From: Eubacteriales bacterium
GTDB lineage: Bacteria > Bacillota > Clostridia > Oscillospirales > CAG-272
Direction: 5' to 3'
DNA: 64,000 nucleotides
NCBI GenBank assembly: GCA_045594705.1
Contig: JAZNZB010000038.1
Span: 20,234 to 84,233, forward strand
The position numbers and the translations under genes are program-made. The notes beneath the pieces are model-generated. The model made no database searches. It saw only the letters and a list, made by a program, of their open reading frames with translations, and was not told where the DNA came from. Below, in pieces: positions 16,513-60,312 of this stretch; the first letter of the stretch is position 1; every line of letters starts with the position of its first letter.

Positions 16513-16547
16513 AAACCACCGGTTCAAAAACCGGTGGTTTATTTTTA
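16513..16547. terminator. Bidirectional hairpin terminator between convergent genes
   Basis: AAACCACCGGTT/AACCGGTGGTTT stem followed by ATTTTTATTATT. Confidence 0.75.
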
Positions 16548-18398
16548 TTATTCATACATTTCAATCGATCCCGTTTCAGTATAAACCATACCGTCCGTAC
16601 AGTATATCGCTATTCCCTTCCTGATAGCTCCCTGAGCGATATCGATTTTCAACCATTCTTCAACCGTTCCTTGGTAATCCACGCGCCATAACGAAGTTCC
16701 CGGAACCAGTGCATTGCTTTCAATCCTATTGAGACTTGTCGGAAGTGTCACGCTTGTTAACCATTCACAATTGTAAAACACGTGACTTGGCAAGACCTCG
16801 ATCGGTTGTTCAAATACAATATCACAACCGATTCCGCTTTCCCTGAATGCGGATGCTCCGATTTTCTGAATTTTGACAAGCCCGTCAATCTCATAAAGAA
16901 CGTGACATTTTCTGAATGCAAACGCTCCAATTTCAGTCAGGTTTTCATTGACTGATACATGTTTGAGCGAGGCGCATCCATCAAACATGTTCGAAGGAAT
17001 AGCCAAAAGACCGCCAAGATCTGCACGCATCAGATTTTCACATTGCAAAAACACTCCTTCTCCTATATGCTCAATGTTTTCGCCAATCTTTACAGAGGCG
17101 ATAGAATTACACTTAGCAAATGCCTCGTCTCCTATGCTTGTGACATTCACAATGCTTAAGTTACTTAATGAAGTACATTGATAGAATGCTTTTTCACCAA
17201 TTTCTCTCACATACGCCAAATCTACTTTTTCAAGTGAGATACAGCCCATAAAAGCTTCGTCCCCAATTTTTTGTATGGTGTCGGGCAAGTCAACCATTGT
17301 GATCGATTCATTTCCCTTAAATGCGCCGTCGCCGATACTCGTCACTTGCGCCATCTCTATCTCTTCCAGTGCACTGCAATATGCAAATGCAGAATCACCG
17401 ATCGAAACGGGACCATCGGGGATGGAAAGCCGCTGCAAGGCAGAGCAGTTTTCAAACGCCTGCTTGCCGATCTCTTGCAGCTTATCGCTGCTGATCTCTA
17501 CCGAATTCAGAGCGTGACAGCCTGCAAAGGCTCTCTCACCAATGCTTTGCAGCTCAGCAGGAAATTCAACGCTTTCAAGCGAGGTGCACTTTTCAAATGC
17601 GCTGTTCCCAATGGTGATAATGCTGTCACTCATTCTGACCGTCTTGAGCTGCTTGTGCCCCTTAAAAGCGCCCTCATTGATGGTCGTGACGGGAATCCCC
17701 TTGTATTCACCGGGGATATAGATCTCCCCCCAGGTGCCGTTCATCGCGTGTATCCAATACTCAAGCGACTCCGTTTGCTCGTTGAAATGCAAATACAGCA
17801 TCACACCGTGAATACTCGTGATCTCGGGAATATCATCGGGAATCGTAACGTCGGGCGGGATTATATCCTCGACTCGCTCTGTCTCTGTGCCCTGTATGAT
17901 CTCTCCGAAGGTCTCGTCGCTCAGATCGTTTTCCAAATAATACTGATACATACGGTCCAAAAACGTGCCGAGATCAGCGGATAGATCTCCGACAAGGCCG
18001 CCCGAACCCTGCTTCATGGCTTCGATGATGGAGTGCTCTCCTCCTGCGCCAAGCACGTCAAACAGCGTATCGGTCAGTGGCCAATGTACCCACAAGGCTT
18101 CGGATCGGTTGCCGTCCTCGTCGCCGCTCTGAGGAAACATGACATGGTCAACGACCTCGGACACGGTGTTATTGATCGGCTCTCTGAACACGATATAGGT
18201 CAGCGGCAGGCTGCAAAGCAGCAGCGCAAATACAAGCACAAGGCAGGCGGCACTGATCAGCAAAGCACGCATATAGTGCTTTTTGTGCGGAGGCTTTTTG
18301 GCAAGCCCTGCGTCCATTCGTTCAAATTCATCCAGATAATCCGGATCGATCTTGCCGATCGCATCGGTCAGCAGATCGCGATTGATTTGCTTACTCAT
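16548..18398 (-). CDS. Single-pass membrane protein with extracellular BspA-type leucine-rich repeats; putative anti-sigma/sensor partner (L1)
   Basis: 616 aa. Short cytoplasmic head (LLTDAIGKIDPDYLDEF), a TM segment (ALLISAACLVLVFALLLCSL), a juxtamembrane block shared with L2/L3, then about 23-aa repeats of the form xxIGxxAFxxCxxLxxVxIPxxV. The start ATG overlaps the stop of the upstream sigma gene (ATGA). Confidence 0.85.
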   Translation of the reverse strand: MSKQINRDLLTDAIGKIDPDYLDEFERMDAGLAKKPPHKKHYMRALLISAACLVLVFALLLCSLPLTYIVFREPINNTVSEVVDHVMFPQSGDEDGNRSEALWVHWPLTDTLFDVLGAGGEHSIIEAMKQGSGGLVGDLSADLGTFLDRMYQYYLENDLSDETFGEIIQGTETERVEDIIPPDVTIPDDIPEITSIHGVMLYLHFNEQTESLEYWIHAMNGTWGEIYIPGEYKGIPVTTINEGAFKGHKQLKTVRMSDSIITIGNSAFEKCTSLESVEFPAELQSIGERAFAGCHALNSVEISSDKLQEIGKQAFENCSALQRLSIPDGPVSIGDSAFAYCSALEEIEMAQVTSIGDGAFKGNESITMVDLPDTIQKIGDEAFMGCISLEKVDLAYVREIGEKAFYQCTSLSNLSIVNVTSIGDEAFAKCNSIASVKIGENIEHIGEGVFLQCENLMRADLGGLLAIPSNMFDGCASLKHVSVNENLTEIGAFAFRKCHVLYEIDGLVKIQKIGASAFRESGIGCDIVFEQPIEVLPSHVFYNCEWLTSVTLPTSLNRIESNALVPGTSLWRVDYQGTVEEWLKIDIAQGAIRKGIAIYCTDGMVYTETGSIEMYE

Positions 18399-18976
18399 AC
18401 CGAATATCCCTCCTCTTCCAATCTTTGTTTAAGCTCAGATCTGAGACTTGCAAGCTCCTTGTTGATCTTAGAGCGGCTGCGACCCAGTTTTTTTGCAATC
18501 TGATCAATCTGATGCCCATAGAAATAACGGCTGATGAAAATATACTGACTCTCTCCTTCAAGCCCTGCCATAAACTCATCCAGGACGCTCGACAAAACGT
18601 CACTGTCCTGCTCTGTGTATCTGATCGGTTCTTCCGAAACGAACGAAAAATCCGAGAGCGAGATGGGCTGGCTGTCCCCTCCGCGCTTTTGTCTGTTATG
18701 GTGTCTGTAATACATCATAGCCTGGCGGCGCATGATGACAGACAAAAAGGCCTTAAGCACGCGAGGACGCTTGGGCGGCATGGAGTTCCATGCGCCGAGA
18801 TACGTATCGTTCAGGCATTCCTCGCTGTCCTGGAGATCATGCAGAATATTGTTTGCAACCGTCATCAAATATGCACGGTATTTCTGATCAGTCAGACGAA
18901 TGGCCTCCTGATCTCTTGCCCAATACAGATCAATGATGGTCTCGTCATCAGGCAGGTAGGTTTTGATTTGTTGCAT
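18395..18976 (-). CDS. Sigma-70 family (ECF-like, regions 2 and 4) RNA polymerase sigma factor (S1)
   Basis: Start set at ATG 18976 (AGGAG RBS), 193 aa. IIDLYWARDQEAI...LQDSEECLNDTYLGAWNSMPP (region 2) and YIFISRYFYGHQIDQIAKKLGRSRSKINKEL (region 4 HTH). Confidence 0.9.
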   Translation of the reverse strand: MQQIKTYLPDDETIIDLYWARDQEAIRLTDQKYRAYLMTVANNILHDLQDSEECLNDTYLGAWNSMPPKRPRVLKAFLSVIMRRQAMMYYRHHNRQKRGGDSQPISLSDFSFVSEEPIRYTEQDSDVLSSVLDEFMAGLEGESQYIFISRYFYGHQIDQIAKKLGRSRSKINKELASLRSELKQRLEEEGYSV

Positions 18977-18995
18977 GTCATCTCTCCTTGTTGAG

Positions 18996-19034
18996 CTTTT
19001 CACCTATATAGATGCTAAAATTTTGAAAATGTGT
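18996..19034 (-). promoter_or_regulatory. Conserved upstream motif of sigma gene S1 (candidate alternative-sigma promoter)
   Basis: Minus strand: ACACATTTTCAAAATTTTAGCATCTATATAGGTGAAAAG. Related blocks sit at the same place upstream of S2 and S3. No TTGACA-N17-TATAAT is present. Confidence 0.45.
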
Positions 19035-19088
19035 ACGCTTTTGATTCAATTTTATCATATTTTCAAAAAAAATCAACAGACAAACAAA

Positions 19089-19114
19089 GGCAGAGAGCCA
19101 AAATGCCCTCTGCC
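19089..19114 (-). terminator. Hairpin terminator after L2
   Basis: GGCAGAGAGC/GCCCTCTGCC stem (one mismatch) with T-rich flanks on both strands, directly after the stop at 19128. Confidence 0.65.
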
Positions 19115-19127
19115 CTGCTTTTTTTGT

Positions 19128-21230
19128 TTATTCTATTACGATCTCACCGTCGGTGCAGACGATTTTGACTCCGCTTGGGATTGCGCGAGTGTCGACTTGA
19201 ACCTTGCTTTCAAATTCCTGCACAGTTCCCGGATAGTATATTGACTTAAGATTTGCACATCCGGTAAATGCATCGGATACGATATGCTCAAAATTCTCAG
19301 GCAGATAGACCTCTTCCAGATTTGCACAATCCTGAAATACGCGGCTATCAATCGTATCAACCTTATCCGGCAGTGTAATTCGCACAAATCCTGTGTTTGT
19401 AAACATGCCAATGCACAAGTCTCTTCCGTCAAATCCCTCTCCAAAGGTGACGTTTTTGAGCGAATAGCATCCCATAAAGAGCTCGAACGAATCCGGGAAT
19501 TCCTCAATGAATGCGGGCACGTATGCACTCTGCAGGCTCACACAATCCTGGAATACGCGTTCACCCATTTGGTCTACGCCGTCAGGTATCGAAACGCTTG
19601 ATAAGGACGTGCATCCTTTAAAGGATTCGAGCCCTACGGTAAGCAAAGTCTTTGGCAAATACAGTTCCTTGACATTGGTACAATTCAAAAACGCCCTTTG
19701 ACCTATGATTTCAAGCCCTTCAGGCAATATCACCGCCTCAAGAGAGCTGCAGGTTGAAAATGCGTATTCGTATATATTCTTCAAATTTTTAGAAAACGTG
19801 ACCTGCTTTAAGCCTGTGCAGCCTCCAAACGCGCTGCTTTCGATTGTTGTAACGCCATCGGGTATGACGATCTCTTGGAGCGATACACAATAGTTGAAGG
19901 CAGACGCACCGATGGTTTGGCACGAAGTTGGCAGTACGATCTCTTTGAGCTTTCCGCATCTGTAAAAGCAATCGGACGGTACGGTCTCAAGGCTCTCAGG
20001 CAACGTGACGCTGACAAGCTCCGAGCAACCCGAAAATGCCGACGGCTCTATCGTGGTCACACTTGGCGGCAGGACGATCGATTCCAGTCCACTTCCTGTA
20101 AAGACTGCACTGCCGATATCCTGCAGCTGCGCGGGTAGTTCGATCGTTTTGATTGCAATACAACCTGAAAAAGCATGATCGAGAATTCTTATACAGCCTT
20201 CCCCGATGATCACCTCTGTCAAATTCACGCTATCCGAGAAGCATTTTGCGGGAATGGTTGTAAGATTCTTGGGCAAAACCGCACGATTCATTCTCTGGCT
20301 GTTTAAGAATACACCTTCATCCATGCTTTGTAAGGAATCCGGAAGCTCCAGCTCTCTGATATCATTGCAGTAAAAGGCTTCCCGACCGATATGCTGCAAA
20401 TTCTGCGACCACTTGACCGTATGCAGCTGCGTACTGTAGTAAAAAGCCTCTGCTTGAATTTCGGTAATACTGTCGGGCAATATGAGTTCTTTTATAAACA
20501 CGTTGTTATAAGCCGCTTTTTCTACTATGACCTGAACGGGCAGACCGTTGATCTCTGCAAGAATTTCCACGACACCGTCACCGTTCGAAAGCTCTGACGT
20601 AGTTTTGATATTCGTGACTTGCCAATAGTCGTCCTTTTCTCCGCGCTCATAAACGATGCCGTTATGCTCGTATACGGTTTGCTCACCTTGCGTCGTAGGC
20701 TCCTCAGGCTCGTCTGTCGTTTGCTCGGTATCCTGCTCGATCGGGGGCTCCGGATCAGTCTTGTGCTTATGGTAATACTCATACAAGCGTTCAAGGAACG
20801 CACCGATGGATTGCATGATCTCCCCAAAAAGACCGCCCTGCATTCCCTGCATCTGATCGATGACGGAATCTTCTGTGCCCGCGCCCAAGGCTGCAAACAA
20901 CTCTTCCGAAAATTCCCACTCGATCCAATTGAGCAACAGATCCTCTTGCTTGATATCGGTTTCTTCATCATCTAAGGGGAAAAGCACGCGGTCGATCGAT
21001 TCGATTACGGCAGAATTGATCTGCTCGCGATGCACGATATAGGTCAGCGGCAAGGATGCCAGCAGCAAACTAAAGGTCAAAAGCAGACAAGCCGCTGCGA
21101 TCAGTAGCTTGCCCCACGCGGGCATGCGGCGCTTTTTTCGCAGCAAAAGACGGGTTTCCATTTGCGTATAGCTCTCAAGCAGATCGGTATCGATCATGCC
21201 GATCGCATCCAATAACATATCCTGCGTCAT
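19128..21230 (-). CDS. Single-pass membrane protein with extracellular BspA-type leucine-rich repeats; putative anti-sigma/sensor partner (L2)
   Basis: 700 aa. MTQDMLLDAIGMIDTDLLESY head, TM (LLIAAACLLLTFSLLLASL), conserved juxtamembrane block, acidic linker, long LRR array. ATGA overlap with S2. Confidence 0.85.
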   Translation of the reverse strand: MTQDMLLDAIGMIDTDLLESYTQMETRLLLRKKRRMPAWGKLLIAAACLLLTFSLLLASLPLTYIVHREQINSAVIESIDRVLFPLDDEETDIKQEDLLLNWIEWEFSEELFAALGAGTEDSVIDQMQGMQGGLFGEIMQSIGAFLERLYEYYHKHKTDPEPPIEQDTEQTTDEPEEPTTQGEQTVYEHNGIVYERGEKDDYWQVTNIKTTSELSNGDGVVEILAEINGLPVQVIVEKAAYNNVFIKELILPDSITEIQAEAFYYSTQLHTVKWSQNLQHIGREAFYCNDIRELELPDSLQSMDEGVFLNSQRMNRAVLPKNLTTIPAKCFSDSVNLTEVIIGEGCIRILDHAFSGCIAIKTIELPAQLQDIGSAVFTGSGLESIVLPPSVTTIEPSAFSGCSELVSVTLPESLETVPSDCFYRCGKLKEIVLPTSCQTIGASAFNYCVSLQEIVIPDGVTTIESSAFGGCTGLKQVTFSKNLKNIYEYAFSTCSSLEAVILPEGLEIIGQRAFLNCTNVKELYLPKTLLTVGLESFKGCTSLSSVSIPDGVDQMGERVFQDCVSLQSAYVPAFIEEFPDSFELFMGCYSLKNVTFGEGFDGRDLCIGMFTNTGFVRITLPDKVDTIDSRVFQDCANLEEVYLPENFEHIVSDAFTGCANLKSIYYPGTVQEFESKVQVDTRAIPSGVKIVCTDGEIVIE

Positions 21231-21808
21231 ACCAAGTAGCCCTCCTTTGCCAAATGCTCGCGAAGACCTCGCTTGATGTCATAGACGTCCTTATTGACCG
21301 TGGATTTGCTGCATCCAAGCTCGGATGCGATCTGATCCAAGCCCTTTGCATAATAATATCGGCTGATGAATACATAGCGCTGTCGTGCGCTCAGCGTACG
21401 CAGCCAATCGCTGATGGCCTGACCCAATTCGGCAGTTTCCTGCATGGTATACGAGCCCTCCTGATCAGGCACATAGTCCTCAAAATCGGTCAATGAAAAG
21501 GTGACCCTCAGATCCCTTTTCTGCCTGTGCTTTTCCCTGTATTTGCTGATGGCGATCCTGCGCATGATCGAGCCCAAGAAGCTTTGCAGCACGTTGGGAC
21601 GGTGCGGCGGAATGGCATTCCAGGTGCTGACGTAAGTATCATTCAAGCATTCCTCGCTATCCTGCATATCGTGCAGGATATTCTGCGAGACGCTGATCAA
21701 AAATCTGCGATACTTGACGTCGGTCGCCTCTATGGCCTTTTCGTCGCGTGCCCAATACAGTGCAATGATCTCTTGGTCACTGCGCAAACTTACGTTTTGT
21801 TCTTGCAT
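21227..21808 (-). CDS. Sigma-70 family (ECF-like) RNA polymerase sigma factor (S2)
   Basis: Start set at ATG 21808 (AGGAG RBS), 193 aa. IIALYWARDEKAIE...MQDSEECLNDTYVSTWNAIPP and YVFISRYYYAKGLDQIASELGCSKSTVNKDV. Confidence 0.9.
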   Translation of the reverse strand: MQEQNVSLRSDQEIIALYWARDEKAIEATDVKYRRFLISVSQNILHDMQDSEECLNDTYVSTWNAIPPHRPNVLQSFLGSIMRRIAISKYREKHRQKRDLRVTFSLTDFEDYVPDQEGSYTMQETAELGQAISDWLRTLSARQRYVFISRYYYAKGLDQIASELGCSKSTVNKDVYDIKRGLREHLAKEGYLV

Positions 21809-21837
21809 TGTCACGTCTCCTTTTTGTTTGATATGGG

Positions 21838-21876
21838 CTTTCGTAAGTATAGTCGCCAAACGAAATGGAAAAGTGT
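21838..21876 (-). promoter_or_regulatory. Conserved upstream motif of sigma gene S2
   Basis: Minus strand: ACACTTTTCCATTTCGTTTGGCGACTATACTTACGAAAG. Aligns with the S1 and S3 blocks. Confidence 0.4.
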
Positions 21877-21945
21877 AAAGATATTGATAATTTTCCTCTA
21901 TTATCATTTTATCATAAAATCGCAATTTTGCAAGAGGAAAAGCAA

Positions 21946-21972
21946 GGCAGAGAGCCCGAAGACTCTCTGCCC
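21946..21972 (-). terminator. Hairpin terminator after L3
   Basis: GGCAGAGAG/CTCTCTGCC stem followed by TTGCTTTTCC on the minus strand, after the stop at 21982. Confidence 0.65.
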
Positions 21973-21981
21973 TGCAAAATT

Positions 21982-24273
21982 TTAGTGGATAGTAATGACC
22001 TCGCCATCATCGCAGATTACGGAAACTCCGGCCATCAAAGCATCCTCGGCAATTGCAAGCGCATGCCATTGCTGTAATGTGCCTCGGTATTGAATGGTAT
22101 CAAGCTTTTCACATCCCGTAAAGGCTTGACTGCCTATGCTTTGCACCGACTCCGGAATGGTGATGGTTTGCAAGGATTTACAGTTCATAAAGCATTGTTC
22201 CGGCAGCTCGCGCAAGGAATTGGACAATACGATATTCTCAAGACTTGTGCATCCCATAAACTCGCCAACACCGATGTATTCGATCGTATTCGGCAGATAC
22301 ACGTTTTTGACACTGTACGCCCCTGTAAATGCCTTTTTAAGTCCAACCACTTTATCATAATAGTAATACGCAGCAACGTTGATCGTGTCGTAATACCTTG
22401 TCATTTCCAAAGAGGTCAACTCGTATAGTCCTTGATACTCACCGCTTTTTATCGGTAAGTAGTTCATTTCCTGTGTAACATCTGCAAAATATTCTCCGTC
22501 CGCAAGCTTGACGATCGCTCCCGATCCGAATACACGACCAAGAGGCTCACGATATATTCCGCAAAACCATTGCGGAGCTGTAACGTTCATTATGACGTAT
22601 TGCACGTTTTCAAAGCTTTGTGCCCTGAGTGCTGTAAGCGTGGAAGGCAGCTCGATCTTATTGATCGAAGTTCCCGAAAACGCACTGCTTCCGACTTCAA
22701 CAAGCCCCTCCGGCAGGCTGATCGCAGTCAATGATTTGCAGCCTTCAAACGCGTTTGATTGAATCTCAGTCAAGGTACTTGGCAGCACAACGCTTTGTAA
22801 ATTTTCACATTCCGCAAACGAGTGCTGTCCTATAGTAGTTGTGCCTTCAGCAAGAATCACACTTTCCAAAGCATGACATTCCTCGAATGCACGGAGAGAA
22901 ATAACCTCTACGCTGCCCGGAATGATGATCTCGGTCAATGCCGTTCCCGAGAAGGCCGACTTGCCAAGATTGGTAAGTCCCTGCGGGAGTTCAATACCAT
23001 GCAGATTGCCGCAGCCGCTGAACGCTGATTCTCTGATTTCGGTAACGCTTTGCGAAAGCTGTGCTGCAGTCAGCTGTGTACAATTTTCAAAACATGCGCT
23101 GCTGATCAGCGTTGTTCCCTCCGGAATATCCAAAACGACCAATCCGGTTTCCGCAAAGGCTTGCGGACCTAAAGATTCAAGATTTTTCGGCAGATCGACG
23201 CTTCCAAGCGCGCTGCATTGATAAAAGGCTTGCGTCATGATCTGTGTCACCGAATCCGGGATTTCCACGGAATTCAAGAAAGGATTCATTGCAAAGCAGT
23301 ATTGCGGGACCTCTGTCAGGCCATCGGGCAAGGATACGTATTCAATTCCCTTTCCACCGGCTTCATTTGAGCATTCGTAGAATGCATACGATCCCAATTT
23401 GGTCAAGCTATCAGGCAGTTCAACACGGGTAAGCGATTGACAATATGCAAACGCGTATTCGCCAATCTCTTCAAGATTTTGTGACCAAGTGATCGAAGAT
23501 AGATTTCCACAACCCAAAAAGGCTTTTTCACCAATATGTGTTATCGAATCCGGAAGAATCAGCTCACGTAACGTGCTTCGCTCTTTGGCTGCTTCTTGCC
23601 TGATTTTAGTCACGGGAAGACCTTCGATCGCTTCGGGAATTGTCAATACACCGTCTTTTACCTTATCAACACTGTACAGCATCCAATAATCCTGACCGAC
23701 GCCCTTTCTGTAAGTGCAACCGTCAAGCTCCAACATGATCGCTTCTTGACTTTCGGATTCAGTCCCTGATTCCTTTTCCGTGGGGCTATCAATGTCTTCT
23801 TTATACTTTTCATAGTAATCAAACAACTTATCCAAAAGCCCACCAAGGCTTTGCCAAGCCTCACCCGCAAGTCCACTTTGCTCACCTATCATCCAGTCGA
23901 TAACCGAGTTTTCCGTGCCTGCGCCCAGTGCATTGAATATCTGTTCCGTAATCGGCCATTCGGTCCAGTTCAGCAACAGATCCTCTTGCTTGATATCTGC
24001 ATCCTCGTCGTCCAACGGGAAGATCACGCGGTCGATCGCGTCCGAGACGGCCGAGTCGATTTTTTCACGGTTGACAATGTACACAAGCGGCAGCGAGGTG
24101 ACAAGCAATGCAATCACCAACAGCATAGAGATCGCTGCTGCCAGCAGCGTGACAAGATACCGCTTTGTTTTGCTCCGCTTGCGGCTTCGCAGTGCCATAT
24201 CCTTGAGCACGTATGCTTCGACAATATCGGCATCCACCATGCCGACCGCGTCCATAAACATGGATTTATTCAT
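21982..24273 (-). CDS. Single-pass membrane protein with extracellular BspA-type leucine-rich repeats; putative anti-sigma/sensor partner (L3)
   Basis: 763 aa. MNKSMFMDAVGMVDADIVEAY head, TM (LVTLLAAAISMLLVIALLVTSL), conserved juxtamembrane block, LRR array interrupted by a non-repeat insert. ATGA overlap with S3. Confidence 0.85.
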   Translation of the reverse strand: MNKSMFMDAVGMVDADIVEAYVLKDMALRSRKRSKTKRYLVTLLAAAISMLLVIALLVTSLPLVYIVNREKIDSAVSDAIDRVIFPLDDEDADIKQEDLLLNWTEWPITEQIFNALGAGTENSVIDWMIGEQSGLAGEAWQSLGGLLDKLFDYYEKYKEDIDSPTEKESGTESESQEAIMLELDGCTYRKGVGQDYWMLYSVDKVKDGVLTIPEAIEGLPVTKIRQEAAKERSTLRELILPDSITHIGEKAFLGCGNLSSITWSQNLEEIGEYAFAYCQSLTRVELPDSLTKLGSYAFYECSNEAGGKGIEYVSLPDGLTEVPQYCFAMNPFLNSVEIPDSVTQIMTQAFYQCSALGSVDLPKNLESLGPQAFAETGLVVLDIPEGTTLISSACFENCTQLTAAQLSQSVTEIRESAFSGCGNLHGIELPQGLTNLGKSAFSGTALTEIIIPGSVEVISLRAFEECHALESVILAEGTTTIGQHSFAECENLQSVVLPSTLTEIQSNAFEGCKSLTAISLPEGLVEVGSSAFSGTSINKIELPSTLTALRAQSFENVQYVIMNVTAPQWFCGIYREPLGRVFGSGAIVKLADGEYFADVTQEMNYLPIKSGEYQGLYELTSLEMTRYYDTINVAAYYYYDKVVGLKKAFTGAYSVKNVYLPNTIEYIGVGEFMGCTSLENIVLSNSLRELPEQCFMNCKSLQTITIPESVQSIGSQAFTGCEKLDTIQYRGTLQQWHALAIAEDALMAGVSVICDDGEVITIH

Positions 24274-24857
24274 ACCTTGTATCCCTCCTTTTCCAGCGTT
24301 GCTTTCAAAGAAGTCTTGATGTATGCGATGTCCGCATTGACGGTCGATCGTGCACAGCCGAGTGCTTGCGCGATCTCTTCAATGGAGCGGGCATCGAAAT
24401 ACCGGCTCATAAAGACGTAGCGTTTGCGCTCATCCAATGTTCTGATCCAAGCGCTGATCACATCGGACAGTTCCCTTGCTTCTCTTTCATCATAAGAGGC
24501 AAAGTCGTCCGATAACACGCCCTCCAAATCGGAAAGCGGTGCAACAAATGCGGGCGGAATGGCCTTTTTGGTATGCTTTTTTCTGTATCGGTCAATGGCA
24601 AGATGACGCGTAATGGTGCTCAAGAACGCCTGCAGCACGTTTGGTCTGTGCGGCGGCATGGACTCCCATGCACCAAGATAGGTGTCGTTGAGGCATTCCT
24701 CACTGTCCTGCATATCCGAAAGGATGTTATGCGCGACGCGCAGCAAATAATTGCGGTATTTGAGATCCGTATACTTGATCGCCGCTTCATCTCTTGCCCA
24801 ATACAGCTCAACAATGGCCGAATCGCTGAGCATATAGGTCTGATTCTGATTCATCAT
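24270..24857 (-). CDS. Sigma-70 family (ECF-like) RNA polymerase sigma factor (S3)
   Basis: 195 aa, AGGAGG RBS. IVELYWARDEAAIK...MQDSEECLNDTYLGAWESMPP and YVFMSRYFDARSIEEIAQALGCARSTVNADI. Confidence 0.9.
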   Translation of the reverse strand: MMNQNQTYMLSDSAIVELYWARDEAAIKYTDLKYRNYLLRVAHNILSDMQDSEECLNDTYLGAWESMPPHRPNVLQAFLSTITRHLAIDRYRKKHTKKAIPPAFVAPLSDLEGVLSDDFASYDEREARELSDVISAWIRTLDERKRYVFMSRYFDARSIEEIAQALGCARSTVNADIAYIKTSLKATLEKEGYKV

Positions 24858-24874
24858 GAAGCCTCCTTAATTGT

Positions 24875-24914
24875 CCTTTCACCTATACAGACGAGAAAGA
24901 TTTCGAAAAAGTCC
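24875..24914 (-). promoter_or_regulatory. Conserved upstream motif of sigma gene S3
   Basis: Minus strand: GGACTTTTTCGAAATCTTTCTCGTCTGTATAGGTGAAAGG. Shares CT(A/G)TATAGGTGAAA with S1. Confidence 0.45.
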
Positions 24915-24933
24915 GACGGTTATTGAAATAATT

Positions 24934-26391: not shown

Positions 26392-27126
26392 TTACTGTGT
26401 AAGTCCGCCCAAAAGACCACTGAGCTGCCCGTAGCCCGGGATATTCTCTTCCAGAATTCCCTCCATAAAGCCCTCGTTGCCCTTCATGGCATGATAGACC
26501 GATTCGTAAATGGCATCGCGTACCGTACCGTTTGCCACCTCGTTGATGCGTTCCACGATAGCATCAGCAACTGCATCCGCCGTTTTCTGCGCAATATACT
26601 CACGCAGAGAGTCCGGCTTATCATCAGGCAATTGCACTTCGGTTGTTATCTCTTCCTCGGTTGTTTGCTCCTCCGAGCCAATGCCATCAAATCTATCCTC
26701 GAGCCAATTCTTGATCAGCCCCTTGATAAATTCCGACGTGCTGCTGCTTCCTATGTACAGATCCAAAACCTCACCGATGATCTGAGAGTAATCGTAATCT
26801 CCATTGCCAAGACCGCCAAGTGATCCGAGAATGCCCTCAACAATGCCCGCATACTCGGTGGTTTCCTCTTCGGAGTCAGATTCTGTGGTTCCACCCTCTA
26901 CCTTACCGAGAGCCTCCAGTATAGATTCGGACATGTCGGCTTTAAGCTGTTCCAGCTCTTCTTGGCTGATCTCATGCTCGGTCTCTGCTTCACGTTCGGT
27001 TTCTGTTTCTTTTTCGCTGTCCTTGGGATCGTCATTATTACTACCGTCATCCTTACAAGCGGTCATGACGGTGACTGTCATCAGCAATACAAGGAGCACA
27101 GAGATCATTCTGATAAACTGTTTCAT
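26392..27126 (-). CDS. Acidic putative lipoprotein, unknown function
   Basis: Start moved to ATG 27126 (MKQFIRMISVLLVLLMTVTVMTAC-KDD, lipobox) because a promoter at 27182-27210 lies inside the longer ORF. Mature protein is very Glu/Asp/Thr rich. Ends 21 nt upstream of asnS. Confidence 0.7.
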   Translation of the reverse strand: MKQFIRMISVLLVLLMTVTVMTACKDDGSNNDDPKDSEKETETEREAETEHEISQEELEQLKADMSESILEALGKVEGGTTESDSEEETTEYAGIVEGILGSLGGLGNGDYDYSQIIGEVLDLYIGSSSTSEFIKGLIKNWLEDRFDGIGSEEQTTEEEITTEVQLPDDKPDSLREYIAQKTADAVADAIVERINEVANGTVRDAIYESVYHAMKGNEGFMEGILEENIPGYGQLSGLLGGLTQ

Positions 27127-27181
27127 TGCGTATGCTGTTCCTTTCTTAGTAAATATTCGTTGATTTGGAAAACTTCTACTC

Positions 27182-27210
27182 ATTATAGCACTATTCATCG
27201 AGAATGTCAA
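27182..27210 (-). promoter_or_regulatory. sigma-A type promoter (TTGACA-N17-TATAAT)
   Basis: Minus strand: TTGACA ttctcgatgaatagtgc TATAAT. Confidence 0.6.
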
Positions 27211-27296: not shown

Positions 27297-29249
27297 TTAT
27301 TGCACGTATTCTATTTCAACCGAAAGCGCGGTGCTGTCGTATGCGGAGGTTTTGCCCATGTTGACTGCGATCCAGATGCGATCACCCTTCTTAACGGTCA
27401 TCTGAATGCTGCCCTTTCCGACCTCCCCGTACGGTGCATCCACATATCCGTAGCGATCTCCCTGTGTCATTGCTTGCTTTTCATGCATGACGCGATATCG
27501 GATGCCGTCTCCCTCGGGCGAGGTAACGCTTACGTTGAAGGCATACAGGATATTTCCATCCTCGGGCGCTTCAAATACGAGTACTGCATCGTATTGATCC
27601 GGATGCACGGCACTGCTCATAATCAGAGAAAACTCGGATTTTCCTTGCCAGCGTTGATTGGCGGCATCAAAGGTCATCTCGTAAAGCTTATCTTTTCCGG
27701 GCTGTGCGCACATATAGTACCAGCCGCCCTTTCCCTGCTCAGTGGAGTATCCACCGGGGAATGAAAACACGCTCTGCGGCTTGTCTACCGCAACGGCGGT
27801 CAGGTCGTTGATCACATGAATGTTAACGTATTCTCCATTGGGAGCAATATTGTAGTACTCGGTTATATACGCATAAGGATTGCCTCTGCGCAGCATCTGG
27901 GAAAGCTTGATTTCCATTTGGATGCTCGTATCCGCAGTATCTATAACAGGGGGCGGATTATCACCAAGCCAGGTGCTTGCCAGCTGCTCCCATACCCATT
28001 TGTAGCTTTCATAATCTGCGTCGATCGTCCAGTTTGCAATGCTGAGATACGTACAGCCACGGGAGTACGCATCCATGCCCTGTTCAAGATACTTTTCAGG
28101 TGTCGCGCCAACCTGGTTCGGGCCATCGATCTCCTGTGCAAGCAGCACGCTTGGAGCAAAGGTTGCATCTGCGTAGTCCATGGAAAATTCGTGCTCGGAA
28201 ATAGGTCCGTCATCGATCCATACCACGTCGGCGTTCTCTGCAAGGTCACCTGCATTGAGCGTGCATCTCAGCAAGGACGCCGCATCAAAGTGGCTGCCGA
28301 ACTGCAAAGCGAGCTTGGACTCGGGTGCTGCATCCTTTTGTACCTTGGCAAGTGCGTCAATAAAGCCCTTGAGCTTTTGATGGCGGAACTGATACCAAAG
28401 CACGCCAAGGTTATCCGATGCGGTGCAGGAAGGTGGCTCTACCCGGGAGAAATCAGAATAATTTGTTCCGAGAATGACGTTCAAGGCGGCAATATCACCG
28501 TATTTGTCCTTCAAGAAAGCACGGAAGGCATTCTTGGCAAGATCCGAATAATCATATTCTCCGGCCGGCCAATATTCTGTTTCGGCAAACTGCGTAAATG
28601 CGGGCAGATAAAACAGGATATCGTCACCGTAAAGTGCGTCGTAACGCTTAACTGCATCCTCATAAAATGCCACTGCCGCACCAACGGCACTCTCAGAGCA
28701 AAACGAGATCACTGTACGCATCCCGTCGATTGAGCCCCCCTGGCAAAGATTGCCCGCGGGGTCTCTCTGCATCTGATCAAGGCCGATCACCTTGTCGTCC
28801 GCACGGCGGGTCAGATCGATCGAGATCGCGACCTTGAGCCCCTTGGTCTTGACCACATATTCGATCATGGGATCAAACGCAGAAAAATCGTATTCTCCTG
28901 CCGTCGTTGATTCCACACGACTCCACGGAATGTGCACCTTGATAGCATTAAAGCCGGTCGCAGCTGCAGCGTCAACCGTTTGCTCAAATTGCACCTGCGT
29001 CTGAGACGTAAAATTCCAGATGCGGTAGATATAGTATCTCTCGCCTATCTCTCTCTGTGCTTTCATATCGGTGTTCTCCTGTGTGGTCTCCTCCAAGGAT
29101 TCTGTCGTATCATCGCTTGTCTGGGACAAGGTCGTGGATTCTGTATTGTCCTGTATGGGCTCGTCAGGCACAGGCGTGCACGCAACCGCTCCGAGCACAA
29201 GTGCACCGGGCAGCAGCATGCACAGCAGCTTTCTGATCGTTCCGAACAT
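27297..29249 (-). CDS. Putative lipoprotein glycoside hydrolase (TIM-barrel, GH42/clan GH-A-like)
   Basis: Start set at ATG 29249 (AGGAGG RBS). MFGTIRKLLCMLLPGALVLGAVAC-TPV signal/lipobox. GFNAIKVHIPWSRVESTTAGEYDFSAFDPMIEYVVKTKGLKVAISID resembles the N-terminal barrel strands of GH42/GH35-type enzymes. Family not certain. Confidence 0.6.
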   Translation of the reverse strand: MFGTIRKLLCMLLPGALVLGAVACTPVPDEPIQDNTESTTLSQTSDDTTESLEETTQENTDMKAQREIGERYYIYRIWNFTSQTQVQFEQTVDAAAATGFNAIKVHIPWSRVESTTAGEYDFSAFDPMIEYVVKTKGLKVAISIDLTRRADDKVIGLDQMQRDPAGNLCQGGSIDGMRTVISFCSESAVGAAVAFYEDAVKRYDALYGDDILFYLPAFTQFAETEYWPAGEYDYSDLAKNAFRAFLKDKYGDIAALNVILGTNYSDFSRVEPPSCTASDNLGVLWYQFRHQKLKGFIDALAKVQKDAAPESKLALQFGSHFDAASLLRCTLNAGDLAENADVVWIDDGPISEHEFSMDYADATFAPSVLLAQEIDGPNQVGATPEKYLEQGMDAYSRGCTYLSIANWTIDADYESYKWVWEQLASTWLGDNPPPVIDTADTSIQMEIKLSQMLRRGNPYAYITEYYNIAPNGEYVNIHVINDLTAVAVDKPQSVFSFPGGYSTEQGKGGWYYMCAQPGKDKLYEMTFDAANQRWQGKSEFSLIMSSAVHPDQYDAVLVFEAPEDGNILYAFNVSVTSPEGDGIRYRVMHEKQAMTQGDRYGYVDAPYGEVGKGSIQMTVKKGDRIWIAVNMGKTSAYDSTALSVEIEYVQ

Positions 29250-29271
29250 GCGAACCTCCTGTGATTGGTTT

Positions 29272-30219
29272 TTAATAGAAAGTGGCAACCTCTTGTGCGG
29301 GTTTGGTGGCAAACTCGGTCTTTTCTGCGTAAAGCACGGGACCCGGTCTGCCGTAAAGCTTATGTGATTCTACGCGAATCTTGGCAGTCACAATGGTCCA
29401 ATCGCGCGTTTTGAGGTTGATCGCGGACGGGAAATTGCATACAAGCGCGTTATATTCGATATCATCCGCACAGCAGGTCATGACATGACGACCGATGATC
29501 AGCGAGGACTTGCCAAGCTTGGCATCACGTGCCACAATGCCCTTGAAGCGCACCGTTTTGCCGTGATACTTGTCTGTTTCCTCTGCCAGGTCGCGATACC
29601 AGATCGCGTAATCTTCATCCTTGATGTCAATGATGGGAGCATCAATATCGAAAGGCAGCGGATCCTCAATCTCGTCGTATTCTACGTGCCCGTCGGGATA
29701 ATCGTAGGTGATGGACGCTCTGATGCTGACGCTGCGCACCACACGGTGAATCTCTTCTTTATCAATCACCTCGGGCGTGCGGTTGAGTACGATCATTTCG
29801 CAAGCCTGCAGCTTATCCACCATGAGCTGACGCATGTTGGCGTTGTAGGTCAGGAAGGTGTTGGCGTCCGCAAACATCATGTTCTGGAAAATAAACCAGT
29901 CTGCAGGCAATGCTGCGTACAGTCGGTCAAGCAGCCACATGCCGTTGTATTCAATGATCACGCGATCGATCTTGTGCTTTTTGTAAAGCAGGGTCAGATA
30001 GTCGCGGTTGAGATCCTCGGGATCATCGATCAGTTCAAAATAGCAGTTCTTCCCCCAGAAGCGATCGAGCTCCAGCTCCTCTTCGCCCTCCTCGCACATG
30101 ATGATCAGCGTTTTTTCACCGGAATTGAAGCGTTGATCCTCCATGGATTCCTGGATGATGTGCGTCTTTCCGCCCTCCAGGAAACCGGTAAATAGATATA
30201 CAGGTATTTTTTTTGCCAT
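29272..30219 (-). CDS. Divergent P-loop GTPase related to COG0523, lacking CxCC, with a Cys-Cys-containing C-terminal domain
   Basis: 315 aa. Walker A TGFLEGGKT. Where COG0523 has the GCICC motif there is none. The C-terminal part contains GRHVMTCCADDIEYNALVC. Starts 1 nt after the stop of the upstream COG0523 gene. Confidence 0.7.
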   Translation of the reverse strand: MAKKIPVYLFTGFLEGGKTHIIQESMEDQRFNSGEKTLIIMCEEGEEELELDRFWGKNCYFELIDDPEDLNRDYLTLLYKKHKIDRVIIEYNGMWLLDRLYAALPADWFIFQNMMFADANTFLTYNANMRQLMVDKLQACEMIVLNRTPEVIDKEEIHRVVRSVSIRASITYDYPDGHVEYDEIEDPLPFDIDAPIIDIKDEDYAIWYRDLAEETDKYHGKTVRFKGIVARDAKLGKSSLIIGRHVMTCCADDIEYNALVCNFPSAINLKTRDWTIVTAKIRVESHKLYGRPGPVLYAEKTEFATKPAQEVATFY

Positions 30220-57884: not shown

Positions 57885-58287
57885 CCAGCTCGTTCTTAAT
57901 ACCGTTGAGTACGCCGTTGACAAAGCCGCGTACCTTTTCGTCGTCATACTTCTTGGTCAGCTCGATCGCCTCGTTGATGGCAACCGCGCAGGGTACGTCC
58001 TTGACGTACGCCATTTCATACGTGCAAAGACGAATGACAGCGCGGGAGACGCGGGTCAGGCGGGAGACCTTCCAGCCGTTGGAGTGACGCTCGATGGTGG
58101 CGTCGATCTCGTCCAGCTTTTCGCAAACGCCGAAAAAGGCGTCCTTGATATAAGCTCCCTCGGGCTCGCCATTCTGCTCACACCAGGTCGCATAGACCTC
58201 TTCGGGGGTCTCGTCTCTTCTGAAATCACTTTCAAAAAGCAGTCCAAATACTGCCTCTCTTTGCATTTTTCTACTCATTTGTGCCAT
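57868..58287 (-). CDS. nusB: Transcription antitermination factor NusB
   Basis: Start set at ATG 58287 (AAAGGAAA RBS; the longer ORF would begin almost at the predicted transcript start). REAVFGLLFESDF... and AINEAIELTKKYDDEKVRGFVNGVLN. Confidence 0.9.
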   Translation of the reverse strand: MAQMSRKMQREAVFGLLFESDFRRDETPEEVYATWCEQNGEPEGAYIKDAFFGVCEKLDEIDATIERHSNGWKVSRLTRVSRAVIRLCTYEMAYVKDVPCAVAINEAIELTKKYDDEKVRGFVNGVLNGIKNELDAHAE

Positions 58288-58340
58288 AGCTGTTTCCTTT
58301 CGCACGAATTTGGGCATATATAGTCATTATATAATATTTT

Positions 58341-58369
58341 ATTATACACAATACCGCGCAAAAAGTCAA
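58341..58369 (-). promoter_or_regulatory. sigma-A type promoter of the nusB gene string (TTGACT-N17-TATAAT)
   Basis: Minus strand: TTGACT ttttgcgcggtattgtg TATAAT. Confidence 0.6.
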
Positions 58370-58420
58370 CACAAAAATGCATAAATGTTTGCATAAAGTG
58401 AATATTTCCATCCGAGCACA

Positions 58421-58455
58421 AAAGAAAAAAGATCCCCGCGGCTAATGCCGCGGGG
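58421..58455 (-). terminator. Rho-independent terminator of the two-gene AT-rich insert
   Basis: CCCCGCGGC/GCCGCGGGG stem followed by TCTTTTTTCTTTT on the minus strand, after the stop at 58465. Confidence 0.8.
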
Positions 58456-58464
58456 AATGTGAAA

Positions 58465-59445
58465 CTACTCTGCTCTCACTGTGGGTTCTGTAATGGGAAT
58501 CATAAACCATGCGCCGTCGCTGACTGTATTACCGTCTTTTGTTGTGATCTTGGCCTGAACGCTGCAATCCAGAGCAAGGCTTCCGTCTTCCAATCGGACA
58601 AGCTGATCTATTTCAGCCTCATAGGTCCAAGTGCAGCCTTCCTCCTCTAACTCTCGATATATGCTATTCGCCTCTTCCTCCAACACTCGATAGACGCTTT
58701 TCATAAATTCCTCCGGAATGGGCTTAACGTTTTTCATATCACCCAGATTATTGTGGCTATACGAAAATACTGTTCCCGCGTCATCAACTGCAATCACCAT
58801 GTGATCGCATGTTTTCAGTTCTCCGATGTACCTGTAAAACCAAAAAAAGCTGATTCCAACCCCTATTTCGGGATCCCATTTGTAATTTTGAGGATCTTCC
58901 ACATGCTTTGACAAAAAATCGTAAGCAATTTCGTATCTTTGCTCTTCCGTATACGATACCTCACCGTTTTCACTGTAGTGAGGAAAAAACGAAAACTCAA
59001 TGCATTTTCCGGTTTTTGCATCAATGACAAGTTCGGATGGTTTGCCATTATACACACCATCATACCAGTGTTTTCCATCGTTATACAGCCATCCATCGGT
59101 TGAATATGCATACACGTATTCGTATTCAATGTCATTGACGGTGTATTTGACGATCTTCTCTGCTCGGTCATCCTGATAATTCTTCGTATTCAGCGAAATA
59201 TCTTCTGAATGATTTGGATCTAAAGATGATTCCGATGAATCATATTGTAATCCATTAAGTTTTTTTAAAAAAGCACCGTCAACGATCATGTCTTCCGTGT
59301 TATCAGCATCATTATCCGATACAAATTCCGTATGTAAGGATCCTTCCTCATATTGCGAACGATCCGGTACATTTAACTCTTGACACGCTGCAAGAGAAAT
59401 AACCATAACGAATATCATTAAAAATAAATAAAATGTTTTTCTCAT
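58465..59445 (-). CDS. Hypothetical lipoprotein
   Basis: 326 aa. MRKTFYLFLMIFVMVISLAAC-QELN canonical lipobox. Visibly more AT-rich than its neighbours. No family recognised. Confidence 0.7.
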   Translation of the reverse strand: MRKTFYLFLMIFVMVISLAACQELNVPDRSQYEEGSLHTEFVSDNDADNTEDMIVDGAFLKKLNGLQYDSSESSLDPNHSEDISLNTKNYQDDRAEKIVKYTVNDIEYEYVYAYSTDGWLYNDGKHWYDGVYNGKPSELVIDAKTGKCIEFSFFPHYSENGEVSYTEEQRYEIAYDFLSKHVEDPQNYKWDPEIGVGISFFWFYRYIGELKTCDHMVIAVDDAGTVFSYSHNNLGDMKNVKPIPEEFMKSVYRVLEEEANSIYRELEEEGCTWTYEAEIDQLVRLEDGSLALDCSVQAKITTKDGNTVSDGAWFMIPITEPTVRAE

Positions 59446-60176
59446 AGAAACCTCCTGACATTAAGATGATTAATATTCGGGGTAAATCCATAAACCAATC
59501 TCCTTGCGAAGGTGTTGGGAACCCGACAACAACATTTTGTATTAAAATTCAGCAAGCTAACATTTGCCACACCCGTACTTGCATTAACGGATCCGGCCTT
59601 TACTCGAGTTGATACTGTGTTCCCGGATAAATCAACAGGATATATAGTAAAATATGCCATATTTTTTTCTGGCTTCCACGTATAGCTCAAGAAAAACTCT
59701 TGCGCATTAGGAATGCTTTTCTCACTCTGTTGACAAACATTTGTCCCATGCGCAGTCGAACCATTCGGTATTGTCAAATAATTTTTGGATGACTTGTTTT
59801 TGAAGCCTATGTATCCCTCATGAAGCAAAATGCCAATATAGGGTTCAATATTTTCCCAATTATCGATTGCAGCAACCTCGGGCTCTTGCAAATTAATTGG
59901 TTGCAGTGGGTCAAGTTCAACTGCTGCAAATTCATCCTGTTCGCTCGAAGTCACGCTTTCTACGGACTCCGAGCCAGTGTCTTGTGAGGCCGCGGGCGTT
60001 TCGGTCTGTTCGGTTTGTTGTTCACCCGCATATACGGACAACAAGGAAAGCACAAGCAAAAGTGCCAGTGCCCGACCTATGGCCAAGAATATTATACCAT
60101 ATATTCTATGGCTTGTCAACTTTATTTGTGCATTATGTACACTGCATGCAGGTATTGATTCTCCTTCACTATACAA
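59442..60176 (-). CDS. Hypothetical secreted or membrane-anchored protein, possibly with one ricin-type beta-trefoil-like repeat; start uncertain
   Basis: The track ORF starts at a TTG with no RBS. Hydrophobic segment ALALLLVLSLLSVYA, acidic linker, then KNYLTIPNGSTAHGTNVCQQSEKSIPNAQEFFLSY, loosely like a lectin (QxW-type) subrepeat. Overlaps the downstream gene by 4 nt. Confidence 0.45.
   Translation of the reverse strand: MYSEGESIPACSVHNAQIKLTSHRIYGIIFLAIGRALALLLVLSLLSVYAGEQQTEQTETPAASQDTGSESVESVTSSEQDEFAAVELDPLQPINLQEPEVAAIDNWENIEPYIGILLHEGYIGFKNKSSKNYLTIPNGSTAHGTNVCQQSEKSIPNAQEFFLSYTWKPEKNMAYFTIYPVDLSGNTVSTRVKAGSVNASTGVANVSLLNFNTKCCCRVPNTFARRLVYGFTPNINHLNVRRFL
60091..60119 (-). promoter_or_regulatory. 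Perfect TTGACA-N17-TATAAT inside the 5' part of ORF 59442-60176
   Basis: Minus strand: TTGACA agccatagaatatatgg TATAAT. If used, the transcript would begin near 60084, just before the hydrophobic segment. Confidence 0.4.
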
Positions 60177-60312
60177 ATGTCGAAAAACACTATATGATTA
60201 CATTTATTACAAAAGATAATTGTAAATGATTTGTAAACAAGTGGTTCTTTTCACACTTTACCGACCGGTTGACCGTCCCTGTAAAGGTTTCGTAAAAATT
60301 TCGCACGCGGGC

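Follow-up and report, generated by a model that had tools for sequence, protein, structure and literature searches.

What do three consecutive pairs of a small sigma-factor gene and a large membrane-protein gene do in the genome of a Eubacteriales bacterium (Clostridia; Oscillospirales; CAG-272)? The pairs lie on the minus strand of a 64,000-nucleotide stretch of contig JAZNZB010000038.1 (assembly GCA_045594705.1). We call this whole stretch the window and give all positions in its numbering; the sigma-factor genes are named S1 to S3 and their partners L1 to L3. According to our analysis, the pairs most likely represent a form of bacterial sigma/anti-sigma signalling that is common in gut Clostridia and has so far not been characterised. 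The pairs are real, conserved and widespread, the minimal N-terminal head of the L proteins is undescribed and their ectodomain is unusual, while the mechanism set out below is a proposal.

The open reading frame (ORF) list gives the pairs in the order S3-L3, S2-L2, S1-L1, with the sigma-factor gene first in each. All six ORFs lie where an earlier description made by a model from the letters alone (the sequence-only reading) had placed three modules of the same layout. The modules and their terminators are as follows.

24270-24857, minus strand: S3, extracytoplasmic function (ECF) sigma factor of 195 aa (amino acids) (Pfam and NCBIfam TIGR02937)
21982-24273, minus strand: L3, 763 aa, with head, transmembrane (TM) helix, juxtamembrane block and leucine-rich repeat (LRR) ectodomain of the LRR_5 family (ORF list, Pfam, alignment)
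21942-21975, minus strand: terminator-like hairpin 3' of L3, 15 pairs (9 G-C) followed by a T-run
21227-21808, minus strand: S2, ECF sigma factor of 193 aa (Pfam and NCBIfam)
19128-21230, minus strand: L2, 700 aa (AlphaFold2 model, LRR_5 match with E 9e-129, Foldseek)
19087-19116, minus strand: terminator-like hairpin 3' of L2
18395-18976, minus strand: S1, ECF sigma factor of 193 aa (Pfam and NCBIfam)
16548-18398, minus strand: L1, 616 aa, with head, TM helix, juxtamembrane block and LRR_5 ectodomain (ORF list, Pfam, alignment)
16513-16540, no strand assigned: hairpin between L1 and a convergent transporter gene, scored on the plus strand as the terminator of the transporter gene

The mechanical ORF starts of S1 and S2 were further upstream, at GTG and TTG, respectively. 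We preferred the ATG starts because each ATG chosen for the three sigma genes follows an AAGGAG ribosome-binding site. At all three junctions the stop codon of the sigma gene and the start codon of the 616-763-aa partner overlap as ATGA, just as had been described before, and a GGAGG Shine-Dalgarno sequence is found 9-10 nt upstream of each L start, within the codons of the conserved sigma C-terminal (E/K)EGY. The overlap and the GGAGG inside the end of the sigma gene mean that S and L are joined by classical translational coupling. The sequence-only reading had also given every module a terminator of its own. This is true of L3 and L2, whereas the hairpin next to L1 is probably a bidirectional terminator common to L1 and the transporter gene. 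A tblastn search found no fourth module in the window.

The sigma factors S1-S3 each match Pfam Sigma70_r2, Sigma70_r4_2 and Sigma70_ECF, and all of them score above the cut-off of NCBIfam TIGR02937 (sigma70-ECF; for S3, 68.8 bits vs a cut-off of 42.9). Their pairwise identity is 47-52%. S1-S3 are canonical two-domain (sigma2 plus sigma4) ECF (group 4) sigma factors and not SigI-type, in agreement with the 193-195-aa proteins with region 2 and region 4 reported from the letters. When the subfamily and equivalog models of NCBIfam were used, S1-S3 stayed far below every cut-off; the best subfamily scores were 70 bits vs 204 (PRK11922) and 63 vs 126 (Sig70_bacteroi1), and the characterised ECF equivalogs, SigW, SigM, SigY and SigZ among them, were also far from being reached.

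The L proteins share a common build. Pfam matched LRR_5 (BspA type) in L1-L3 with E 6e-84 to 9e-129, and L2 was modelled with AlphaFold2 (AF2) from a 37-sequence alignment (mean predicted local distance difference test score, pLDDT, 87.9). This model divides L2 into five parts.

21129-21230, minus strand: head, aa 1-34
21033-21119, minus strand: TM helix, aa ~37-66
20763-21032, minus strand: helical juxtamembrane block, aa ~67-156
20676-20762, minus strand: disordered acidic linker, aa ~157-185
19131-20675, minus strand: LRR_5 solenoid, aa 186-700

The head consists of two short helices (aa 3-13 and 15-30; pLDDT about 60-70), the juxtamembrane block of four helices (pLDDT 65-80), and the repeats were modelled with pLDDT >95. 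A K/R-rich stretch lies between the head helices and the TM helix in the AF2 models, and these positive charges before the TM helix indicate that L has an N-in topology. The top Foldseek matches of L2 were 4gt6 and 4fs7 (both E ~1e-16), which are BspA-type LRR surface proteins from gut bacteria, and 4cp6; PcpA and TpLRR were also among its best structural matches. By pairwise alignment, L1-L3 are 31-45% identical in the head, 56-77% in the TM helix, 38-64% in the juxtamembrane block and 33-34% in the LRR region. The alignment thus bears out the shared head motif, the single TM helix and the juxtamembrane block (about 90 aa by AF2) of the sequence-only reading, together with its BspA-type repeat array that differs between copies. 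Neither HxxxCxxC nor any Cys is present in the heads of L1-L3, so the remark that the zinc-binding motif is missing was right. Given this lack, a head of only ~34 aa and no Pfam match, L is not a class I/zinc-binding anti-sigma factor.

To see how far this arrangement extends in other genomes, we used the N-terminal profile of L in an exhaustive HMMER search of 1.84 billion cluster representatives. The L-type N-terminus turned out to be rare, with 39 proteins at E <1e-10. In all 39 the match runs from the head to within the juxtamembrane block, and in most it covers the whole profile; the weaker matches cover the head and TM helix only and have unrelated C-terminal parts. A word-indexed homologue search found only 2 fragments with the L2 N-terminus and 34 short fragments with a broad head profile, A6. 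Among GTDB genomes, the L N-terminus was found in seven metagenome-assembled genomes (MAGs) of uncultured Clostridia/Eubacteriales, including one labelled sheep colon and one labelled yak colon. An S-type sigma gene stands directly upstream of every L-type N-terminus (13/13) in these seven GTDB loci and the ENA metagenome locus L001. Five of the seven GTDB loci have two modules. The locus L003 (JAFVTI010000048.1, the sheep colon MAG), whose flanking proteins are 88-95% identical to those of the window, has one module between asnS and the transporter gene, at the very site where the window has three (16548-24857), and the locus L011 has four in tandem. The copy number of the module is thus evolutionarily fluid.

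The sigma subfamily is much larger. It contains at least 937 protein clusters at E <1e-20 and occurs in at least 579 metagenome stretches, human gut samples among them. We made a census of 102 sigma loci, of which 101 were evaluable for the downstream ORF and 95 had a readable partner product. At 100 of the 101 loci the start of the downstream ORF falls between -30 and +5 nt relative to the stop codon of the sigma gene; 51 of 71 unique partners have the ATGA overlap, an offset of -3. Nearly all readable partners (93/95) have a strong TM helix after an N-terminus of 35-60 residues, and 80 of the 95 carry the strict head motif (L/I)xxA(I/L)(G/S)x(I/L)D(D/x)D(I/L)(I/V)E, with a visible variant of it in most of the others. 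What follows the head and TM helix is not the same, since LRR_5, serpin, DUF6273 and unknown ectodomains are all found there. In the census the juxtamembrane block was seen only alongside an LRR ectodomain, and the head motif only in partners of this sigma subfamily. Cultured Lachnospira eligens ATCC 27750 and Monoglobus pectinilyticus have the same arrangement, with the partner annotated as 'hypothetical protein', and NCBI names L-type proteins solely 'leucine-rich repeat domain-containing protein'. The head plus TM helix is therefore the defining unit, and the pairs with an LRR domain form a single clade within a far wider class that is mostly without annotation. The LRR domain, part of every module in the sequence-only reading, is found in L1-L3, but not in the partners that carry the same head and TM helix with a serpin, DUF6273 or unknown ectodomain.

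A constant head and TM helix coupled to a constant sigma, with an ectodomain that changes, is the signature of a sigma-binding (anti-sigma) module. That the same head and TM helix are joined to such different ectodomains makes the head the constant partner of the constant sigma, and an ectodomain that changes while the head stays is what is expected if the head is the part that binds sigma. Sigma and head distances also co-vary (Mantel r = 0.77, reached in 0 of 2000 permutations), which co-inheritance alone could produce. The pairing proposed earlier stands as a conserved family of sigma factor and partner (13/13 and 100/101); by inference the head would bind the sigma, and the LRR domain may have a sensor role.

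Several partners outside the LRR clade were seen in the same census. The L027 partner (ORF start at ~nt 752) has a membrane-anchored serpin behind the head and TM helix (Pfam Serpin, E 3.7e-61), and the L087 and L035 partners match it by phmmer. With its link to an ECF sigma, such a serpin could sense proteases or act as an inhibitor that regulates itself. A sigma factor with a 177-aa partner (MKHEVLTRAIGELDDELIADAYAYKPRKR..., no Pfam domain) is nearly identical in ~20 contigs (L047, L052-L068 and others), several of them labelled human gut metagenome, so this pair appears to be common in human gut samples. In the LRR-type loci L002, L004, L005 and L008, three to five ORFs of ~190-320 aa, which are absent from the window, are located between the first and second modules.

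How could such a pair work? We consider it reasonably probable that each module is a self-contained, autoregulated pair of an ECF sigma factor and a single-pass anti-sigma factor, with an interchangeable ectodomain and release by proteolysis. Translational coupling would let S and L be made in fixed proportion from one transcript, and L would be inserted in the membrane with its N-terminus in the cytoplasm. The acidic two-helix head of ~30 residues would then keep the cognate sigma at the membrane, in a shape like that of class II (CnrY) and not of class I/zinc-binding domains. A surface event, either a ligand on the LRR ectodomain or damage to the ectodomain, would lead to removal of the ectodomain, and a site-2 (RasP/RseP-type) cut inside the TM helix would follow. 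The conserved xAA(C), located in the TM helix at its cytoplasmic end, might next act as a degradation tag, and the freed sigma would transcribe its own paralogue-specific promoter (positive autoregulation), so that S and L are made again, possibly together with other targets in the genome.

The short head has a precedent in CnrH/CnrY, where the class II anti-sigma domain is, like the head predicted for L, a very short cytoplasmic part of two helices followed by a single TM helix, and these two helices are enough to clamp sigma4 and sigma2 (PMC7406223). No sequence or fold similarity to CnrY was detected for the L head among PDB chains, and CnrY is small and acts together with CnrX, while L bears an ectodomain of its own of 450-600 aa. 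The proposed tag has a precedent as well. AA occurs within the first 14 residues of the TM helix in 70 of 73 unique partners, across unrelated ectodomains, and the nearly invariant xAA(C) is present at the cytoplasmic TM end of L1-L3 (for example L2 aa 44-48, window ~21087-21101). RsgI proteins have XAA motifs in the TM helix, which RseP cleavage exposes and ClpXP then recognises (PMC12203970). The predicted single-pass N-in topology of L together with xAA(C) is consistent with the anti-sigma factors that are controlled by regulated intramembrane proteolysis (RsiW, RsiV, RseA and RsgI).

The same N-terminus can also be explained without any contact between the two proteins. In this case S and L would only share an operon: L would be the main target of the sigma, the head and TM helix would serve for export or anchoring in an unusual way, as a long signal-anchor or as an AAC box like that of lipoproteins, and the control of the sigma would lie elsewhere. 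The head is indeed very short, unlike any known anti-sigma domain and modelled at low confidence, and [AGSV][AGS]C, found in the TM helix of 49 of the 73 unique partners, superficially resembles a lipobox. But the context of the Cys is unfit for a lipoprotein signal peptide, the head was found in the partners of this sigma subfamily only, where it is retained whatever the ectodomain and comes with the conserved 4-nt overlap, and sigma and head co-diverge, so we think this explanation improbable. The lipobox reading of AAC itself was rejected: the Cys has a median position of 47, with a median of ~4 uncharged residues before it and at least 11 hydrophobic residues after it.

The sign of the regulation is a separate matter, and the present data fit either sign. 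In a pro-sigma role, the head would be needed for the activity or stability of the sigma, much as FecI depends on the N-terminal part of FecR. Coupling of the genes and topology would then be no different, and a short head could serve as a chaperone-like peptide. However, Pfam gave no FecR similarity, and the characterised single-pass +1 partners of ECF sigma factors are mostly inhibitors (PMC7826278). This role is in our view very improbable.

Promoter-like elements were found upstream of all three sigma genes.

24873-24916, minus strand: S3 element, TCGGAC-N17-CGTCTGTATAGGTGAAAGGAC plus a purine-rich block, with ECF-type -35/-10
21847-21879, minus strand: S2 element, TTTACAC-N17-CGACTATAC
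18995-19036, minus strand: S1 element, GTACAC-N16-CATCTATATAGGTGAAAAGC

These elements have a common plan, a -35 ending in AC, a spacer of 16-17 nt and a -10 of CGTC, CATC or CGAC, which differs among the three paralogues. The S3-type TCGGAC-N17-CGTCT(A/G)TA has a single match in the window (24916-24886) and is found upstream of S3-type sigma genes in 7 of 8 related loci. In L011, TTACAC...GCGACTATA recurs in front of the sigma gene whose product shares 72% identity with S2. The S1-type GT(A/G)CAC-N16-CATCT occupies 19036-19010 in the window and also precedes the second-module sigma gene of L002, L004, L005 and L008, and the nearest window relative of these sigmas is S1 (51-56% identity). In the related loci the elements are kept amid otherwise divergent intergenic DNA, and distant members of the subfamily show the same promoter plan with other -35 and -10 words. 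These conserved putative promoters support positive autoregulation with paralogue-specific recognition, as judged from the sequences.

Just 3' of the -10-like element we also noticed a purine-rich block, (G/A)TGA(A/G)GG, in 43 of 79 unique upstream regions of the subfamily vs 4.7 expected from shuffles. In the window it lies at 24873-24887 and 18995-19008, and elsewhere it occurs in L009, L012-L014, L048 and others. It could be an extended -10/discriminator, an initial transcribed sequence or an element of the 5' untranslated region.

When a degenerate pattern of all three types was searched in the window, exactly three sites were found, all of them upstream of the modules. About 4 chance matches were expected, so the absence of further promoter sites is weak evidence. 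With no further target promoter in the window, the LRR protein could just as well be the output of the system as its sensor. Another explanation is a homeostatic cassette: the surface adhesin or inhibitor (LRR here, serpin or other elsewhere) would be the product, the sigma would only express it, and the head would titrate the sigma so that the surface protein limits its own amount and is replenished after shedding or degradation, with no ligand sensing and no wider regulon. The module promoters being the only matches in the window, the housekeeping genes at the flanks, the effector-like ectodomains (LRR_5 surface proteins, serpin), and the gain or loss of modules as units (one in L003, three in the window, four in L011) all fit such a cassette. 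However, the promoter search spanned 64 kb of the genome and a regulon may lie elsewhere, and one dedicated sigma factor for each surface protein would be a costly form of constitutive control. We regard the cassette as unlikely. It would still need binding between head and sigma, so it is a variant of the sigma/anti-sigma pair and not a true alternative to it.

Several results weigh against the sigma/anti-sigma pair with proteolytic release. The first 160 residues of L1-L3 had no Pfam match, even at E up to 10, and neither the N-terminal profile nor the head profile brought up anything but noise in PDB sequence searches. When the N-terminal 175 residues were modelled alone, the AF2 model was weak (pLDDT 68; predicted template modelling score, pTM, 0.40), and Foldseek found no match for it below E = 2 among PDB folds, which leaves the juxtamembrane block with no fold relative; in the model of L2, too, the head did not rise above the pLDDT given before. 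The head, with ~34 aa and two predicted helices, is far shorter than the four-helix class I anti-sigma domains, which average 101 +/- 33 aa (PMC7406223). The LRR_5 and serpin ectodomains look like effectors (adhesin, protease inhibitor) and not like classical sensor domains. No target promoters beyond those of the modules were found in the window or in the flanks of related loci. Casas-Pastor et al. also cautioned that a putative anti-sigma factor at +1 need not function as one. The same authors noted that most ECF groups have group-specific, uncharacterised single-TM partners at +1, so the general pattern seen here is expected.

A bolder form of the sigma/anti-sigma pair takes the L proteins as true LRR receptors. 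A ligand would bind the solenoid, the signal would pass through the juxtamembrane block to intramembrane proteolysis, and the ECF sigma would be freed from a new class of anti-sigma domain of ~30 aa, with the same chassis reused in gut Clostridia for serpin or other ectodomains, for example as protease sensors. We hold this form as tentative and rather doubtful. If it is true, the modules would be a large, orthogonal, plug-and-play family of switches from the surface to transcription, with a host, dietary or microbial ligand.

We also compared the pairs with known systems. In SigV/RsiV of Bacillus subtilis, Clostridioides difficile and Enterococcus faecalis, a canonical ECF sigma is, as proposed for S and L, co-transcribed with a single-pass N-in anti-sigma factor; the ectodomain of RsiV is itself the lysozyme receptor, the sigma is freed by regulated intramembrane proteolysis, and the system is autoregulated (PMC5014341, PMC9044953). 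Unlike RsiV, L has a head of only ~30 aa, an LRR_5 ectodomain and a private helical juxtamembrane block. PMC6056542 contains no mention of Rsi24C.

The sequence-only reading had named the SigI/RsgI pairs of Acetivibrio (Clostridium) thermocellum as the closest known logic. The likeness lies in several points: several paralogous operons per genome with their own promoter each, modular interchangeable ectodomains on a constant cytoplasmic and TM part, and the XAA motifs discussed above. However, SigI has sigmaI-C and no canonical sigma4, whereas S1-S3 carry Sigma70_r4_2; L has no RsgI_N match; and the ectodomains of L are LRRs in place of the carbohydrate-binding modules of RsgI. The juxtamembrane block is helical in both AF2 models, so it is not an autoproteolytic SEA-like domain as in RsgI. 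Membership in SigI/RsgI was therefore rejected, and the likeness is an analogy of logic only.

The ectodomain points to quite different proteins. BspA-type LRR_5 surface proteins (BspA of Tannerella forsythia, pneumococcal PcpA, 4gt6 of Faecalibacterium and 4fs7 of Bacteroides) have the same repeat family and solenoid fold, and the models matching L describe surface adhesins (HupY/LrrG in NCBIfam) or cell-surface proteins and PcpA (Foldseek). To our knowledge, the known BspA-type LRR_5 surface proteins are without the L-type head and juxtamembrane block. In the papers open to our searches, neither an ECF partner with an LRR ectodomain nor an LRR protein coupled to a sigma factor is described; the sequence-only reading, too, knew of no described LRR sensor of this kind.

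Bacteria transduce signals to a large extent through ECF sigma/anti-sigma pairs, yet almost nothing is known about these pairs in the uncultured and commensal Clostridia, the dominant bacteria of animal guts. The family described here is widespread, and its minimal module of head and TM helix is missed by Pfam and NCBIfam models; in RefSeq the partners bear the labels 'hypothetical protein' and 'leucine-rich repeat domain-containing protein'. A new minimal anti-sigma domain, if the head is one, would extend the structural classes of anti-sigma factors and tie BspA-type LRR proteins, known mostly as adhesins, to gene regulation. Synthetic biology would then gain naturally orthogonal triplets of sigma, anti-sigma and promoter, three of which lie in this window.

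The genes that flank the modules are housekeeping genes: asnS, a helicase gene, UDG, mecA and the transporter gene. The modules were also checked as a catalogued defence system, and this was rejected, as PADLOC gave no match. Two further ORFs lie beside asnS. The one at 26392-27210 encodes an acidic 272-aa protein with an N-terminal hydrophobic segment and no Pfam match. The product of the one at 27297-29312 (671 aa) begins like a lipoprotein (…LGAVAC…) and matches Glyco_hydro_42 and Glyco_hydro_14 weakly; this gene and asnS also adjoin a module in the related loci L002, L004, L005, L006 and L008. Farther away, positions 58000-60200 have a GC content of 0.42 vs ~0.52 around them. Two ORFs with a 4-nt overlap lie in this low-GC stretch, one at 59442-60176 with a weak RicinB_lectin_2 match and one at 58465-59445 with DUF4901 (YcdB/YcdC repeat), and the stretch may be an acquired islet.

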